DNA of 63,602 bases, filler included, from Candidatus Tectimicrobiota bacterium (GCA_016193065.1; 8 parts of 8 records of this genome joined end to end with filler, not necessarily neighbours in it), one strand, 5' to 3'. Positions 31,986-37,035 are shown, counted from the first letter of the whole stretch. Numbers and translations are program-made. The notes: generated by a model from the sequence alone, not told the origin.

Positions 31986-32014
31986 CTCGAAGGATTGAAG
32001 GGAGGTGAACCCAA

Positions 32015-32104
32015 ATGAAGAAGCTGTACGTGGCCATTTTCCTGGCAGCGATGAGCGTGGCAGTTTACGTTCTTCCAGTCATGGCGGACGGGGGCGGCGG
32101 TTAA
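32015..32104 (+). CDS. Small secreted-peptide precursor MKKLYVAIFLAAMSVAVYVLPVMA-DGGGG (29 aa; below the ORF-track cutoff)
   Basis: Very strong SD GGAGGTGA 6 nt before ATG; n-region KK, hydrophobic h-region, P-V-M-A cleavage-type site, 5-residue tail; own terminator. Confidence 0.75.
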   Translation: MKKLYVAIFLAAMSVAVYVLPVMADGGGG

Positions 32105-32127
32105 TTCCTCCCCACACCAAAGGATCC

Positions 32128-32168
32128 AGTAAAGAACCCCAACCGGCTGGTTGGGGTTCTTTACTTTT
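32128..32168 (+). terminator. Intrinsic terminator after the peptide gene
   Basis: 17-bp perfect stem AGTAAAGAACCCCAACC / GGTTGGGGTTCTTTACT, 4-nt loop, then T run. Confidence 0.85.
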
Positions 32169-32193
32169 CCCCAAGCTCAATAAAATCCAGTCC

Positions 32194-32222
32194 TTGACCC
32201 ACGGGAGGTAGTGTGGCAAGAT
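32194..32222 (+). promoter_or_regulatory. Putative sigma70 promoter for SBP-kinase
   Basis: TTGACC-17-CAAGAT with TG extension. Confidence 0.4.
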
Positions 32223-32258
32223 CCCTGAAAAAACGGATCGCCCCTGAAGGGAACCTCC

Positions 32259-33917
32259 GTGCGCCGATTGGTAAACTCCCTTTTCTTCCTGGGCCTTCTT
32301 GCCCTCCTGTTGCTTCCCGCATGCAGCGAGGACAAAAAGACAGCGGGGGAAAATCTCTCGGTCTCCAAGCCCAGGCCGGGAGGCACCTTCCGTCGCCCTT
32401 TGCGCAACGATCCCTCGACGCTGGACCCTGCTCACATTACGGATGTCTACGGATCCACTGTCGCTCAGCAGCTCCACGAGGGGTTGATCCAGTTCGACCA
32501 GAACCTCAACGTGGTGCCGGCTATTGCCCGTTCCTGGACAGCATCTCGGGACGGGCTCACATGGACCTTTGGCCTGAGACCCGGGGTGCGCTTCCATCAC
32601 GGGCGAGAAGTCATCGCGGAGGACTTTGTCTACTCCTTCCGCCGCATCCTAAGCCCCCGGACGAAGTCTGAGCTGACCTGGCTCTTTGATCGCATCGCGG
32701 GAGCCCCGGAATACATGACTGGTAAGGCCAGCCAAGTCAAAGGACTCGAAGCCCTCGACCGATATACCTTGCGGATTCGACTTTCGGAACCCTTTGCCCC
32801 GTTCATCACCCTCCTGGGGATGGCCCAAGCAAAGGTCGTCCCCCGGGAACTTGTGGAGGGCAAGGAATCGTTTTTCGCCAGCCATCCCGTGGGGGCGGGT
32901 CCGTTTCAATTTGCCGGTTGGGAGCGGGGGAAAACGATCCTCTTGGAGGCCAACGAGAACTACTACGAGGGGAGACCCTATCTTGACCGCATTGAATTCC
33001 GGATCTATGCGGGTCTGCAAGACGAAAGGATCCTGGCTGATTTTGAGGCGGGGCAACTGGATGCCGGCTACATCCCCGGGGAAATCGCCCCCCAAAAACT
33101 CCAAGAGATCCTGAACACGAAGAGATACCAGCACCTCCGCAAGCCGATCCTGAGTCTCCTCTTCTGGGGAATGAATACGACCAGACCCCCCTTCAACGAC
33201 CTCAGGGTCAGGCAGGCGCTGAATTTCGCTATCAACGTCAAAGCCATTAATGACTATGCCCGAAATGGCCGTTTCGTTCCCGCCCGTGGAATCCTCCCTC
33301 CCGGAATGCCAGGATTCGATCCGGAACTGCGAGTCTACGAGCATGACCTGGAAAAGGCCCGATCCTTGCTGGCCAGCGTGGGCGCCACAGCCCGAGCTGC
33401 ACTGCCAGAGATTGAGCTCTGGTCAAACGACAACTCACTGGCGGCCCGGAGGGAGTATGAGGTCCTGCTAAAAAATCTCGAGGACTTAAAGATCAAGGGG
33501 AAGATCAAACTGGTGCCTGACTGGCCCACCTATGAGGCCGCCCTGAAACGTGGCGATCCCCTGATCTACCGTTACGCCTGGTATGCCGACTATCCCGATC
33601 CCGACAACTTCCTCTACGTTCTCTTGACGCCAAGCAGCAAGTACAATTTCTCGCGCTACAGGAACGGCAAAATCACCGGCCTGCTCAGTACGGCCCGCCG
33701 GGAAACCGATTACCTGAAGCGGGTTTCCCTCTACCGCCAGGCGGAAAGGCAAATCATGGCAGATGCCCCCTGGGTCCCCATCTTTCATCACACCTTCGAG
33801 TATCTCCTCCATTCCTCCGTGAGGGGAATTGAGATCAATGCCCTGGGTGAGCGGTTCATTCCGATGAAGAAGGTCTGGTTTGCGCCGGGGAATCGAGAAG
33901 CTCGTCCCGGGAGCTGA
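32259..33917 (+). CDS. Family 5 (OppA/DppA-like) substrate-binding lipoprotein with no adjacent permease or ATPase
   Basis: Lipobox LPAC; DPSTLDP, WTF.LRPGVRFHHG, PVGAGPF, VRQALNFAIN and WYADYPDPDNF. Confidence 0.92.
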   Translation: MRRLVNSLFFLGLLALLLLPACSEDKKTAGENLSVSKPRPGGTFRRPLRNDPSTLDPAHITDVYGSTVAQQLHEGLIQFDQNLNVVPAIARSWTASRDGLTWTFGLRPGVRFHHGREVIAEDFVYSFRRILSPRTKSELTWLFDRIAGAPEYMTGKASQVKGLEALDRYTLRIRLSEPFAPFITLLGMAQAKVVPRELVEGKESFFASHPVGAGPFQFAGWERGKTILLEANENYYEGRPYLDRIEFRIYAGLQDERILADFEAGQLDAGYIPGEIAPQKLQEILNTKRYQHLRKPILSLLFWGMNTTRPPFNDLRVRQALNFAINVKAINDYARNGRFVPARGILPPGMPGFDPELRVYEHDLEKARSLLASVGATARAALPEIELWSNDNSLAARREYEVLLKNLEDLKIKGKIKLVPDWPTYEAALKRGDPLIYRYAWYADYPDPDNFLYVLLTPSSKYNFSRYRNGKITGLLSTARRETDYLKRVSLYRQAERQIMADAPWVPIFHHTFEYLLHSSVRGIEINALGERFIPMKKVWFAPGNREARPGS

Positions 33918-33940
33918 CCCGGGGAAAGAGGAGGCGCCCA

Positions 33941-35827
33941 CTGCAATTTCGGTTTCGGGATCTCTCAATCCACACCAAGCTGGTGGTGGCGGTCTGTCTC
34001 CTGGTGGTTTTGCTGATCAGCGGGATAGCCGTCATTGTAGAACGGGGCGAGCGCCGCGCGCTCATTGACCAGGTGCGCAAGCGGGCTGTGGCCACGGCCA
34101 GCAATGTGGCCGCCGTGAGCACCAGCGCCCTGCTCACCTATAACTACGTGACCCTGGAACAAAACGCCGCCAGAGTGGCCCGGGAGGAAGACGTTCTCTA
34201 TGTCATCATCCTGGACAGGGAAGGGAAGGTGGCCGCCCACAGCTCGCGGAGTGAATTGCAGGGAACCGTAATGGCAGATCCCGTAAGCCGCAGGGCCGGG
34301 GCCAGCCGAGAAATCCTGGTGCAGGCAGCGACCTTTTCTGGGACGGCTGATCCTCTCTACGATGTTGCCGTTCCCGTCTACATTAAAGAATCCCCTGAGA
34401 AATGGGGGACGGTTCGCGTGGGGATATCCTTGGGGCCCATGCGCAGGGCCATTGCCCGAAGCCGCCAGGGCATCGCTTTGATGGGCTTGGTGGCCATCGC
34501 CCTGGGGGGGGCCGGCGCCCTCTTGCTGGCTCGCCGAATCACCTCCCCGATTGCCCGGCTCGTGCACGGGGCGGTCGAGGTGGGAAAAGGAAACCTGGAC
34601 CAGCAAATCCCTCTCTCTACCGGGGATGAGATCGGAACGCTGGCAAGAACCTTCAACGAAATGACAAACAACCTGCGCACCAGCCGTCTGTCCGTGGAGT
34701 CGGCGCACCGGGAGTTGAAGTCACAATACAAGGAGATTTCTTTTCTCAAGGACTACAACGACAATGTCTTAAAAAGCATGACCAGCGGCGTCCTTACGCT
34801 GGACCTGGGGGGGCGGATTGTCACAGTGAACCAGGCCGCTGTGCAGATCACGGGACTGGCCGCAGAGGATATGGTGGGAAAGCCGTGCGAACCCCTTTTT
34901 CCGGGAAGCCCCGAACTGCCGGAGGCCCTCCTGGACGTCCTCAGAAAAGAGCGCAGAACACCTCAGGTCATCCATCTGAGATATCCGCGCCCGGACGGCA
35001 AGACCCTGTTCCTGGAGATGACTACGGTGGGACTGCAGGAGGAGACCGGAAAGCTAATCGGGGCTCTCGGGGTCATCCGCGATCTTACCCACGAGCGCGA
35101 ACTGGAGGAACAATTGCGGCGCGCCGACCGCCTAGCGGCCCTCGGCACGATGGCAGCAGGGATCGCCCACGAAATAAAAAACCCCCTAACCTCCCTAAAG
35201 ACCTTCGCGCAGCTTTTTCCCAAGAGGTCCGGCGACCCTGGATTTCAGAAAAAATTTACGGAAATTGTCCCCCACGAACTCGAGCGCATTCATCTCCTCG
35301 CCGAGGATCTCATGGAGCTGGCCCGCCCCACTCAGATGCATCTTCGGCCCGCCGATGTCCACAGCCTGATCGACCGGGTCTTGAAGACCCACGAGGACAT
35401 GATGAAGGGGCAGGGGATCGAGTTCCGCTTCCACCCCGAACCCACGTCCCATCCTCAGCCCCTCGTCGACCCGGAGTACCTCTACCGCGCCTTGACCAAC
35501 CTGGTCCTCAACGCAATCCAGGCCATGCCTGCCGGAGGGCTCCTTGAGATCCGAACCGGGGTCGAGGCTTTCACAAACGGGGATCGAGAAGATCCCCACT
35601 TCGTCCTCCACGTTCGGGACACCGGGACCGGGATCCCCGGGGACAAATTGGGAGATCTATTCACCCCCTTCTTCACCACAAAAGCAAAGGGGACCGGTTT
35701 GGGGCTGGCCATTACCCACAAGATCGTGGAAGGCCACGGGGGGCAGATCCGGGTCGAATCCAGGATGGGCATGGGCACCCAGTTTTCCGTGTCTCTTCCG
35801 CTGAGAGGAATCTCCCGCCGCATCTAG
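33941..35827 (+). CDS. Membrane sensor histidine kinase (TM-Cache-like-TM-HAMP-PAS-HisKA-HATPase); probable CTG start
   Basis: AGIAHEIKNPL H-box, NLVLNA, DTGTGI, PFFTTK..GTGLGL; SD GAGGAGG 6 nt before the in-frame CTG. Confidence 0.93.
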   Translation: MQFRFRDLSIHTKLVVAVCLLVVLLISGIAVIVERGERRALIDQVRKRAVATASNVAAVSTSALLTYNYVTLEQNAARVAREEDVLYVIILDREGKVAAHSSRSELQGTVMADPVSRRAGASREILVQAATFSGTADPLYDVAVPVYIKESPEKWGTVRVGISLGPMRRAIARSRQGIALMGLVAIALGGAGALLLARRITSPIARLVHGAVEVGKGNLDQQIPLSTGDEIGTLARTFNEMTNNLRTSRLSVESAHRELKSQYKEISFLKDYNDNVLKSMTSGVLTLDLGGRIVTVNQAAVQITGLAAEDMVGKPCEPLFPGSPELPEALLDVLRKERRTPQVIHLRYPRPDGKTLFLEMTTVGLQEETGKLIGALGVIRDLTHERELEEQLRRADRLAALGTMAAGIAHEIKNPLTSLKTFAQLFPKRSGDPGFQKKFTEIVPHELERIHLLAEDLMELARPTQMHLRPADVHSLIDRVLKTHEDMMKGQGIEFRFHPEPTSHPQPLVDPEYLYRALTNLVLNAIQAMPAGGLLEIRTGVEAFTNGDREDPHFVLHVRDTGTGIPGDKLGDLFTPFFTTKAKGTGLGLAITHKIVEGHGGQIRVESRMGMGTQFSVSLPLRGISRRI

Positions 35828-35862
35828 GAACTTCTTGAGCCCTTTGTGAACTCCTGACCGAC

Positions 35863-35880
35863 TGCACAAAAAATTGTGCA
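35863..35880. promoter_or_regulatory. Putative enhancer (bEBP/NtrC-like binding palindrome)
   Basis: TGCACAA-AAAA-TTGTGCA, about 170 bp upstream of a sigma54 motif. Confidence 0.6.
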
Positions 35881-35974
35881 CTTTGCACAGTTTCACAACA
35901 TGAGCGGAGCAGGAACTCCACGGGTTCTTTCCCCATCGCTCATCTACCTTTCACTATCTCTACAACAATTTATA

Positions 35975-35987
35975 TATCAACTATTTC
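35975..35987 (+). promoter_or_regulatory. Putative IHF site
   Basis: TATCAACTATTTC (one mismatch to WATCAANNNNTTR) with upstream AT tract, between enhancer and promoter. Confidence 0.5.
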
Positions 35988-36042
35988 TAGCCAACTTCTG
36001 GTCCTCTCCCAGATGATCGTTTTTCTCCCAACTGGGGATAGC

Positions 36043-36058
36043 AGGTACGGTTCTTGCT
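36043..36058 (+). promoter_or_regulatory. Sigma54 (-24/-12) promoter
   Basis: AGGTACGGTTCTTGCT: GG-N10-GC with TTGCT, close to TGGCAC-N5-TTGCW. Confidence 0.68.
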
Positions 36059-36090
36059 AACTGTCAATTCGGAGAGGGGGAGGGAGAGAT

Positions 36091-36339
36091 ATGAAAACTG
36101 TCCGACATAATGGGGAAAAACTTTCTCCAAAATATACAATCCAGGGGTCCTTCTTCGTCCTGAAAGTCTACCAGCGGCCTGGACGAAAGGGAGATGTCGT
36201 TCATGTGGTTGAGACCACATTTCAGACGGGCGACCGGATCATCAGCGACGGGATGACGGCGGAGGAGGCAATCGGGCGAATGTACAGCGCCCTGCCCCTC
36301 GCCATTGAATCAAGGGAATTGGGTGAACGGATTCGATAA
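36091..36339 (+). CDS. Hypothetical 82-aa protein
   Basis: Purine-rich SD; protein-like composition; directly downstream of the sigma54 motif. Confidence 0.65.
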   Translation: MKTVRHNGEKLSPKYTIQGSFFVLKVYQRPGRKGDVVHVVETTFQTGDRIISDGMTAEEAIGRMYSALPLAIESRELGERIR

Positions 36340-36477
36340 GAATCCCTATCGTCTTCCCTCCGGCCCCGGGGCTACGAGTCGACCTTCCGACTTACCCCCC
36401 AATGAGCTCTGGGGCCGGCCCTCCCTTTTTGTTGGATGGAGATGAACCTGGGGAAGAACCGGAGGAGAGAATTTCCC

Positions 36478-37035
36478 ATGAAACGCTTCTCTATTCCCAG
36501 GATTGTTTCCGCCGCCGGTCTATTTATTCTTTGGATTATCAGCCCGGAGATCCTCTGGTCTCAGGAAGCTAGAGGCCAAATTCTGCAAGGCCAACTCAAC
36601 ATCAATCAAGCATCGGAAATGGACTTCCTGCGACTCCCGGGAGTCGGAGAGGTAACAGCCCGCCGGATCGTGTCCTACCGTCAACGGGTCGGAGGATTCA
36701 AGTCAATTTTCGAGCTAAGACAGGTGAAAGGGGTGAGCAGCTCTTTGATCCAGCGCATTTCCCCTTACCTGACTCTGGCTGGAGACTCCACCCTCAAGCG
36801 CCTAGTGGACCTGAATCAAGCCCCGGTCACGACCCTTTCCACCTTGCCCAATATCTCTCCGAAAAAAGCCCGGACCATTGCTTCCTGGCGAAAGGTAAAC
36901 GGTGGGTTTCACAGGGTCGAAGACCTCCTCCTCGTCGGAGTCCTCTCCCCATCCGAGTTTGAGGAGTTGCGGGATTGGGTTCTCGTGGGCCCCATCCCTC
37001 TCCCCCGAACTCCGAGCCCCACAGCCAAGCCCTGA
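36478..37035 (+). CDS. ComEA-like secreted helix-hairpin-helix DNA-binding protein (two HhH modules)
   Basis: Signal peptide; LNINQAS..LPGVGEVTARRIVSYR..GGFKS..EL..VKGV and a second DLNQA..LPNIS module. Confidence 0.88.
   Translation: MKRFSIPRIVSAAGLFILWIISPEILWSQEARGQILQGQLNINQASEMDFLRLPGVGEVTARRIVSYRQRVGGFKSIFELRQVKGVSSSLIQRISPYLTLAGDSTLKRLVDLNQAPVTTLSTLPNISPKKARTIASWRKVNGGFHRVEDLLLVGVLSPSEFEELRDWVLVGPIPLPRTPSPTAKP

Follow-up and report, generated by a model that had tools for sequence, protein, structure and literature searches.

Does this locus encode an exported peptide together with the receptor system that senses it? The question is raised by one contig within the window, by which we mean the whole stretch of 63,602 nucleotides (nt) analyzed here, from Candidatus Tectimicrobiota bacterium (GCA_016193065.1). 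On this contig a 29-codon open reading frame (ORF) is followed by the genes of an OppA-like substrate-binding protein (SBP) and of a membrane histidine kinase. An earlier note on the same DNA had proposed that the exported peptide is bound by the lipoprotein and signals through the kinase to a sigma-54 activator, possibly controlling DNA uptake. The window is a chain of at least eight contigs with N44-TTAATTAATTAA-N44 spacers between them (joins over 7688-58089), and as the contigs are merely joined by these spacers, gene neighborhood across the joins is meaningless. The whole finding is carried by a single contig (31986-48116), and the five features named in the note were all located there and are co-oriented: the small ORF, the SBP gene, the kinase gene, an enhancer and promoter, and an ORF of 82 amino acids (aa), termed orf82, with comEA all lie on the plus strand. 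Comparison with relatives indicates that this region is probably a 5′-truncated copy of a conserved four-gene signaling module consisting of an NtrC-type regulator, a peptide gene, the SBP, and an sCache kinase. The interpretation given in the note is thereby partly supported.

Relatives were collected by searching metagenome contigs with an alignment of 37 SBP relatives (alignment A1). At least 600 metagenome stretches fitted the search pattern, at least 514 of which were found to encode an SBP relative; the 80 best of the latter were retained and are referred to as loci L010 to L089. A small signal-peptide-like ORF was present upstream of the SBP gene in 52 of these 80 loci (50 intact, 2 truncated at a contig end). 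When the SBPs of the 80 loci and of the window were arranged in a tree (FastTree, 81 SBPs), the peptide-bearing clades contained the ORF in 53 rows (52 loci and the window) out of the 54 that could be assessed, i.e., whose upstream DNA was long enough. The ORF was present in 28 of the 30 loci whose kinase is of the full type and whose upstream DNA measures at least 250 nt. Downstream DNA of sufficient length was available for 66 loci, 60 of which had a kinase homolog within 900 nt downstream of the SBP gene. The search for short signal-peptide ORFs upstream of homologous SBP-kinase pairs, which the earlier note had suggested as a check, was therefore positive. Of the assessable loci without a peptide gene, 18 of 19 fell into one clade (support 91), and the classes of peptide described below track the clades of the SBP; the SBP of the window clusters with the fourth of these classes, including L010 and L012 (support 90).

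The clade without the small ORF is a sister clade comprising L016, L019, L030, L072, L083, and 16 further loci. In L019 and L083, the two peptide-less loci scanned with Pfam, the SBP pairs with a shorter sCache_3_2-HAMP kinase in which the PAS domain is absent, and the next gene encodes a hybrid receiver-kinase-receiver (phosphorelay) protein in place of a sigma-54 regulator. In contrast, the four peptide-bearing relatives scanned with Pfam all have the gene of an NtrC-type response regulator directly upstream of the small ORF. Its domains are Response_reg, Sigma54_activat, AAA_lid_14, and HTH_8, the last being a helix-turn-helix of the Fis type. With tblastn the NtrC-type regulator was detected in 39 loci, every one of them in the peptide-bearing clades, and in most of the remaining peptide loci the upstream DNA was too short to judge. 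All contigs of the window lack an NtrC-type regulator, and the contig with the peptide gene ends upstream of that gene. The sigma-54 link that had been proposed for the locus is thus real, but the activator, which had been placed elsewhere in the genome, is encoded directly upstream of the peptide gene in the relatives.

In the relatives, the stretch that separates the regulator gene from the small ORF contains a sigma-54 promoter. In the class of ORFs to which that of the window belongs (the short class), it has the form TGGCAC-N5-TTGCT and stands 60-70 nt ahead of the ATG. A GG-N10-GC match with a score of at least 8 was found 40-160 nt ahead of the small ORF in 47 of the 48 loci assessed, which cover all classes, compared to 8.4% of 2000 control windows taken from the same loci. 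Upstream of that promoter there are 18-bp palindromes of the form TGCxxx-N6-xxxGCA: two TGCCTA...TAGGCA in the short class, TGCAC(A/T)-N6-(A/T)GTGCA in L012 and L027, and TGCACC...GGTGCA in L054 and L081. The sigma-54 promoter described in the earlier note does exist, but it precedes the 82-aa ORF, whereas the conserved one precedes the peptide gene. In two short-class loci an IS200-like (Y1_Tnp) transposase gene has settled between the regulator gene and the enhancers (L029, 1784-2671; L038, 17-910).

Downstream of the small ORF the window has a terminator-like 17-bp hairpin followed by a short T run (32128-32165, plus strand; dG, −32.3 kcal/mol; z, −6.0; none of 200 shuffled sequences as good), which sets the peptide gene off from the SBP gene and was not among the calls of a simple terminator scan. 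A hairpin with a T run is kept at the equivalent place in the short-class loci, and the relatives have one after the small ORF. For the SBP and kinase genes there is a weak sigma-70-like candidate promoter, TTGACC-17 nt-CAAGAT (32194-32222, plus strand), which was not called by the promoter scan and which aligns with TTGACA-N17-TATATA of the short class. The module thus appears to be arranged in the order regulator gene, enhancers, sigma-54 promoter, peptide gene, terminator-like hairpin, a probable housekeeping promoter, SBP gene, and kinase gene.

The small ORF itself (32015-32104, plus strand) encodes MKKLYVAIFLAAMSVAVYVLPVMADGGGG and is preceded by a Shine-Dalgarno (SD) sequence, GGGAGGTGA, read at 31998-32008 on the same strand. 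Its start lies just 29 nt inside the contig edge (31986), and the peptide gene's own promoter is therefore outside the window. The predicted precursor has a signal-peptide-like leader, with KK, a hydrophobic core, YVLP, and the residues V-M-A, and the tail DGGGG. All 13 short-class ORFs of standard length, including that of the window, have exactly 29 codons and a conserved SD sequence; the element AGGAGGTGA upstream of the ORF is kept in nine related loci (alignment A2, short class). Residues Y18, V19, P21, and A24 are invariant in the short class (alignment A3), and in 15 of 15 short-class ORFs the residues before the tail fit the −3/−1 rule of signal peptidase (V/A-x-A). In the short class, the ratio of nonsynonymous to synonymous differences (pN/pS) amounted to 0.28 in the leader and 0.45 in the tail, showing that the tail evolves faster than the leader; in the long class, values of 0.56, 0.46, and 0.65 were obtained, so that all values were below 1. 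The protein pattern persists while the third-position G+C content runs from about 0.4 to 0.97 among the loci. The small ORF thus appears to be a true coding gene, although no Pfam or NCBIfam model attained its cut-off with any class. Three loci contain two tandem copies of the small ORF (L013, 5252-5552; L035, 335-696; L085, 92-329), in which the tails are identical and the leaders slightly different.

The homologous ORFs can be divided into four classes. The short class, which resembles the ORF of the window, comprises 12 loci with exactly 29 aa and the 33-aa variant of L071. Members of the long class (31 loci) have 41-47 aa and carry APVIESGTSGSTQFFQAIGTA ahead of the tail. A class related to the latter (about 40 aa; four loci, one of them cut by a contig end) has the TQVF motif in common with it, and the proteins of the fourth class (about 40 aa; four loci, again one cut by a contig end) read AYA or AWA before the tail. 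Common to all four classes is the ending Ala-(Asp/Glu)-Gly-Gly followed by a variable end. The tail opens with Asp or Glu in 43 of the 50 loci, and 30 of 50 tails have a length of 5 aa (range, 4-8). It is rich in Gly, and its last residue is variable (W in 12 cases, D in 9, E and G in 8 each, others in 13).

The SBP (32259-33917, plus strand) is a family-5, OppA/DppA-like protein with a lipobox-like LLPAC sequence and matches PF00496, the SBP_bac_5 family of cluster C binding proteins for peptides, nickel, and opines, with an E value of 3e-91 (306.7 bits; cut-off, 32.4). The equivalog cut-offs of NCBIfam were missed for OppA (183 of 947 bits), DppA (164 of 1005), GsiB (150 of 594), and NikA (133 of 393); the protein thus belongs to the wider family and is none of these four proper. 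The nearest solved structures are 8upi, GbpA/HbpA, DppA, and OppA, i.e., binders of peptides, dipeptides, and glutathione, and PrgZ (4faj) matches the SBP profile with an E value of 1.2e-60. Asp444 of the SBP was aligned to chain residue 410 of 3m8u, which corresponds to Asp432 of GbpA in the numbering used in PMC3295651. According to that paper, Asp432 is engaged in a salt bridge to the ligand's amino terminus, and its counterpart in DppA is Asp408. Asp444 is invariant in alignment A1 and is kept in all 60 peptide-associated SBPs. As the earlier note had stated, the peptide-binding lipoprotein is not accompanied by a transporter: among the eight downstream genes scanned on the contig no ABC transporter gene was found, the upstream side being off the contig. 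We infer that the SBP binds the peptide of its own module. A complex prediction with the SBP and the 29-aa precursor gave a score of 0.00, but a chain this short is outside the calibration of the tool, so that the value weighs neither way.

In this respect, locus L012 (5030-10018) is informative. It contains enhancers, a sigma-54 promoter, the small ORF, and the SBP gene together, with no kinase or regulator gene within 6 kb; these are followed by fragments of another family-5 SBP gene and by two genes of Opp-like permeases. That the peptide gene and the SBP gene have remained paired despite the lack of a kinase and a regulator nearby was counted as support for a link between the peptide and the SBP.

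The kinase gene (33941-35827, plus strand) starts either with CTG at 33941 or with GTG at 33983. The CTG codon has a strong SD sequence, AAGAGGAGG, 6 nt upstream, and the residues encoded ahead of the GTG codon, the first canonical start, resemble the conserved N terminus of the relatives; CTG 33941, the start assumed in the earlier note, is therefore probably the correct one. The predicted protein consists of a transmembrane segment, an sCache_3_2 domain (residues 24-159, between the two membrane segments), a second transmembrane segment, and HAMP, PAS, HisKA, and HATPase domains. It had been called an NtrB-type membrane kinase. It is a membrane histidine kinase, but its sensor part is not NtrB-like, and NtrB is soluble, unlike this membrane-bound protein with its periplasmic domain. 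Its best NCBIfam match, AtoS, reached 342 of the required 646 bits and the NR(II) model 119 of 240, and since the score is below the AtoS cut-off, the kinase is not NtrB proper. Its gene stands beside that of the SBP, an arrangement typical of binding-protein-dependent kinases with periplasmic sensors, and the pairing of an SBP with an sCache_3_2 kinase holds in the peptide-less clade also. In three short-class loci (L021, 7797-10184; L025, 4231-6623; L065, 3832-6255) the kinase gene is followed by genes for a single-domain receiver and a PAS-PAS hybrid kinase, which suggests a branched phosphorelay.

Taken together, these features are compatible with a self-induced exported peptide that would be sensed via the SBP and the kinase and would activate its own gene through the sigma-54 regulator, a reading to which we assign an even chance. 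According to this model, the 29-aa precursor would be exported by Sec, and cleavage by signal peptidase after the invariant Ala of V-M-A would free DGGGG, a peptide with a free N-terminal Asp (or Glu in relatives). The SBP would grip the free peptide N terminus by Asp444, and the loaded SBP would act upon the sCache domain of the kinase, which would then phosphorylate the sigma-54 activator. The activator would turn on the peptide gene, creating a positive feedback, and in the lineage of the window also the 82-aa ORF. The precursors of 40-47 aa would need a second cut to free the tail, as Phr precursors do. More tentatively, and at somewhat below even probability, we consider that uncultured bacteria with two membranes (diderms) may possess in this module a self-contained, quorum-sensing-like circuit of peptide autoinduction, in which an OppA-like SBP, formerly part of a transport system, now serves as the extracellular receptor of a sigma-54 two-component system and the variable (Asp/Glu)-Gly-Gly-x-x ends represent lineage-specific signal types.

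Several observations weigh against a sensed, self-made peptide. In the peptide-less clade, Asp444 is present in 18 of 21 SBPs and the pocket signature is near-identical, with five discriminating columns, so that those SBPs may bind peptides not made by the cell. L081 (2030-2395), the sole exception within the peptide-bearing clades, has kept the regulator, the TGCACC-type palindromes, the sigma-54 promoter, the SBP, and the kinase, and the small ORF is absent. Because of the contig edge, the window lacks the regulator as well as the peptide gene's promoter and enhancers. The tail is of very low complexity and would thus be ill suited to convey specificity. In three of the four precursor classes, the hydrophobic core and the tail are separated by a conserved spacer of 10-18 residues; the Ala is then too distant from the membrane to be reached by signal peptidase alone, and a pentapeptide signal would have no obvious need for such a spacer. 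Finally, the leader is better conserved than a simple export signal would require.

In a rival reading, the small protein would not be released at all but would remain in the inner membrane (N-terminus in, C-terminus out) and modulate the kinase or the SBP by feedback, comparable to MgrB acting on PhoQ, while the SBP would sense another ligand, e.g., environmental oligopeptides. Like MgrB, the product would be a tiny single-helix protein whose gene is induced by its own two-component system. The stronger conservation of the leader and membrane segment (the four invariant residues and the pN/pS of 0.28 compared to 0.45) and the dependence of the small ORF on a sigma-54 promoter beside the regulator gene agree with this idea, as do the SBP-sCache kinase pairs without a small ORF and the similar pocket signatures with and without the peptide. 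However, there is no sequence relation to MgrB, families of small membrane regulators gave no match at cut-off, and the conserved part is a periplasmic C-terminal tail with a signal-peptidase-like site. The Ala-(Asp/Glu)-Gly-Gly tail is the only element common to the four classes, their membrane segments being different, the −3/−1 rule holds before the tail throughout the short class, and in L012 it is the SBP gene, not a kinase gene, beside which the peptide gene has remained. We regard an unreleased modulator as unlikely.

Rather less probable still is that the peptide is an output of the system and not its signal, for instance a secreted Gly-rich peptide binding Cu or Ni via backbone amides, with the NikA-related SBP sensing a metal-peptide complex or an external peptide. 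Gly-rich peptides are known for such metal chemistry, and an acidic N-terminal residue followed by a run of Gly without side chains would be unusual for a specific pheromone. The peptide gene is moreover the one conserved sigma-54 target of the module, and family 5 includes binders of nickel and metallophores, among them NikA, Opp5A_nikA, and CntA, whose models gave sub-cut-off matches with the SBP. Yet the SBP scores higher with OppA, DppA, and GsiB (183-150 bits) than with NikA (133 bits), its closest structures in the PDB are peptide binders, none of the annotated loci contains metal-related genes, and without an interaction there would be no explanation for the peptide gene and the SBP gene being so strictly adjacent. 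The idea that the small ORF is not translated and that the region functions as a leader RNA or a promoter-proximal element could draw on the very short length of the ORF and the lack of a family match. It has a negligible probability in our view, since the amino acid pattern survives nucleotide divergence and the wide range of third-position G+C, and since the fixed length of 29 codons, the conserved and well-spaced SD sequence, and the pN/pS values below 1 in the short class all argue for translation.

A self-induced, exported peptide would resemble several known signaling systems in part. Phr and AimP are likewise made as short precursors with an N-terminal export signal, the candidate signal here being the last 4-8 residues, mostly 5, and family-5 binding proteins are involved in both cases. 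Phr precursors need a second cut after export. In contrast to the Phr and AimP systems, the loci described here have no cytoplasmic RRNPP/TPR receptor and no permease beside the peptide gene, the output passes through a sigma-54 activator, and the lineage has its relatives among Tectomicrobia, Nitrospinota, and Nitrospirota and not among Firmicutes; the AimP_fam model gave 11-12 bits (cut-off, 35). As the OppA-like protein is encoded beside a membrane kinase, sensing would take place outside the cytoplasm, unlike in Phr and AimP signaling. PrgZ and TraC of enterococcal plasmids, which are lipoproteins of family 5 and OppA-like, also bind a short peptide pheromone, but PrgZ passes the peptide to the Opp permease for sensing in the cytoplasm, whereas the SBP described here has a kinase as its neighbor and no permease. 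With AgrD/AgrC and ComC/ComD the module shares the loop of peptide, kinase, and regulator that activates the peptide gene, and also the conserved leader and the variable mature part. In the Agr and Com systems the kinase binds the peptide directly by a polytopic membrane domain, and dedicated proteins serve export and processing. The module differs from them by its sCache_3_2 kinase with a separate SBP, by the proposed export via Sec and signal peptidase, and by sigma-54-dependent transcription.

The combination of a binding protein and a neighboring kinase with a periplasmic, Cache-like sensor, without a transporter, is found in CBP-ChiS, LuxP-LuxQ, TorT-TorS, and AioX-AioS. CBP-ChiS is the closest of these pairs, and CBP is also a family-5 SBP. 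AioR, the regulator in the arsenite system, is a sigma-54 activator. The ligands of the known pairs are environmental or metabolic (chitin oligosaccharides, autoinducer-2, trimethylamine N-oxide, and arsenite, respectively), whereas the candidate ligand described here is encoded by a gene of the same locus and would control its own synthesis. Table 1 of a 2021 review on SBP-dependent signaling (PMC8050422) gives an sCache-like domain for the kinase of the AioX-AioS pair. CBP-ChiS is the only family-5 SBP with a sensor kinase in the part of this review that was available (PMC8050422), and the word "pheromone" is absent from the review. Full-text literature searches, judged by titles and abstracts, and the same portion of PMC8050422 revealed no paper describing the module, and no curated family was found for it.

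The module is common and compact and has a clear regulatory logic, the at least 514 stretches with an SBP relative stemming from one metagenome scan. In Gram-positive bacteria, the sensing of gene-encoded peptide signals by two-component systems is textbook knowledge, whereas to our knowledge few such cases have been well documented for bacteria that possess an outer membrane. The loci described here are candidates for peptide signaling in poorly known phyla, namely relatives of Tectomicrobia, Nitrospinota, and Nitrospirota from groundwater and other environmental metagenomes. If the proposed mechanism is true, the SBP would be the second family-5 binding protein to serve as the receptor of a kinase after CBP-ChiS in chitin sensing, as far as the available part of the review extends, and its ligand would be made by the cell itself. 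Even if the peptide is a feedback modulator, the small-ORF family, its sigma-54 control, and the 82-aa target appear to be undescribed.

Downstream of the kinase gene, the window contains two overlapping enhancer-like palindromes, TGCACA-N6-TGTGCA and TGTGCA-N3-TGCACA, read at 35863-35889 (plus strand). The perfect palindrome TGCACAAAAAATTGTGCA at 35863-35880, which overlaps TGTGCACTTTGCACA, is unique in the window (0.04 expected by chance). It is followed 165 nt downstream by an element of the sigma-54 −24/−12 type, AGGTACGGTTCTTGCT (36043-36058, plus strand; one mismatch), a pattern that by itself occurs at chance level (4 matches in the window; 3.9 expected). Between them lies an A/T-rich sequence, TATCAACTATTTC (35975-35987, plus strand), which resembles a site of integration host factor and has one mismatch to the consensus WATCAANNNNTTR. 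The promoter at 36043 is predicted to drive the 82-aa ORF (36091-36339, plus strand), an apparent sigma-54 target without a Pfam family. A parallel is provided by L010, in which the kinase gene is followed by a TGCCCA-N6-TGGGCA palindrome, a full-match TGGCATAAGGATTGCA promoter, and a homolog of the 82-aa protein (38% identity; E value, 5e-16). The palindrome type of the window, TGCACA-N6-TGTGCA, is that which precedes the peptide gene in L012 and L027. This fits a control of orf82 by the regulator of the module but does not prove it, because the enhancers of the peptide gene are missing in the window and in L010. The 35-nt enhancer segment (35860-35894) was also seen on other short groundwater contigs with differing flanks (X1 record 8, X2 record 15, and X3 record 24), and loose contig ends occur at 35860, 35889, and 35894 in the same groundwater metagenomes. 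Further sites, possibly belonging to members of a regulon, may therefore exist in the organism or in close relatives.

A word-based search with orf82 yielded a single relative, and a profile search in all 89 loci detected L010 only, which points to a lineage-specific target. The family is small and unnamed, with 64 representative clusters at an E value of ≤0.001, and Atlas gave hypothetical proteins only. The AlphaFold model (predicted local distance difference test score, 81.7) shows a beta-sheet and a long C-terminal helix. Foldseek returned no similar fold at an E value of ≤0.001, the best match being Pur-alpha (E value, 0.1), and the best VIA-align hit had a Z score of 6.5, inside the range that the tool calls common arrangements.

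The gene of the ComEA-like protein (36436-37035, plus strand), which has two HHH_3 stretches (E value, 4.7e-32), lies 97 nt beyond orf82 in the same orientation and is followed by the genes of NAD kinase and RecN. The earlier note had gone on to propose DNA uptake as an output of the system. In its fuller form, this would mean that sigma-54-dependent transcription from 36043 runs through orf82 into comEA. The short distance and the common orientation would allow this, a simple scan found no terminator between the two genes, and the fold of the intergenic region is marginal (z, −2.1). On the other hand, the gap can fold into a 14-bp stem with a T5 run, a possible terminator, and the genes after comEA have housekeeping functions. 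Homologs of ComEA, NadK, and RecN were found in none of the 80 loci, about 23 of which reach at least 1 kb past the kinase gene, and in L010 the genes after orf82 lie on the opposite strand. The link to competence, which is one of adjacency, is not conserved, and a control of DNA uptake by the module is very improbable here.

With respect to the origin of the contig, the nearest named relatives of its RecN are from Entotheonellia, Tectomicrobia, and Nitrospirota (47-48% identity) and Nitrospinota (44%), and one contig showed 83% identity. Relatives of the SBP at about 50% identity number in the thousands, and the named ones belong to Nitrospinota and Tectomicrobia. A scan of genome contigs with a single SBP query yielded distant SBPs only (25-29% identity), among which the module was not seen. 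In genomes from that scan, SBPs at 27-34% identity were present and no kinase was found beside them, and in 401 genomes of the phylum of G001, for which the top candidates per genome were scored, there was no SBP at an E value of ≤1e-130. The terminal ORFs of the contig that precedes ours in the window lie on the minus strand and are hydantoinase/oxoprolinase-like, as named from reading the translations and not from a family search. The DNA recurs in four groundwater metagenome runs of one study, two of which may be where it came from, whereas no RNA run containing it is listed, a blank that weighs neither way. Public contigs extend upstream past position 31986 by 373 nt (runs X1 and X3) and by 81 nt (one contig from X4).

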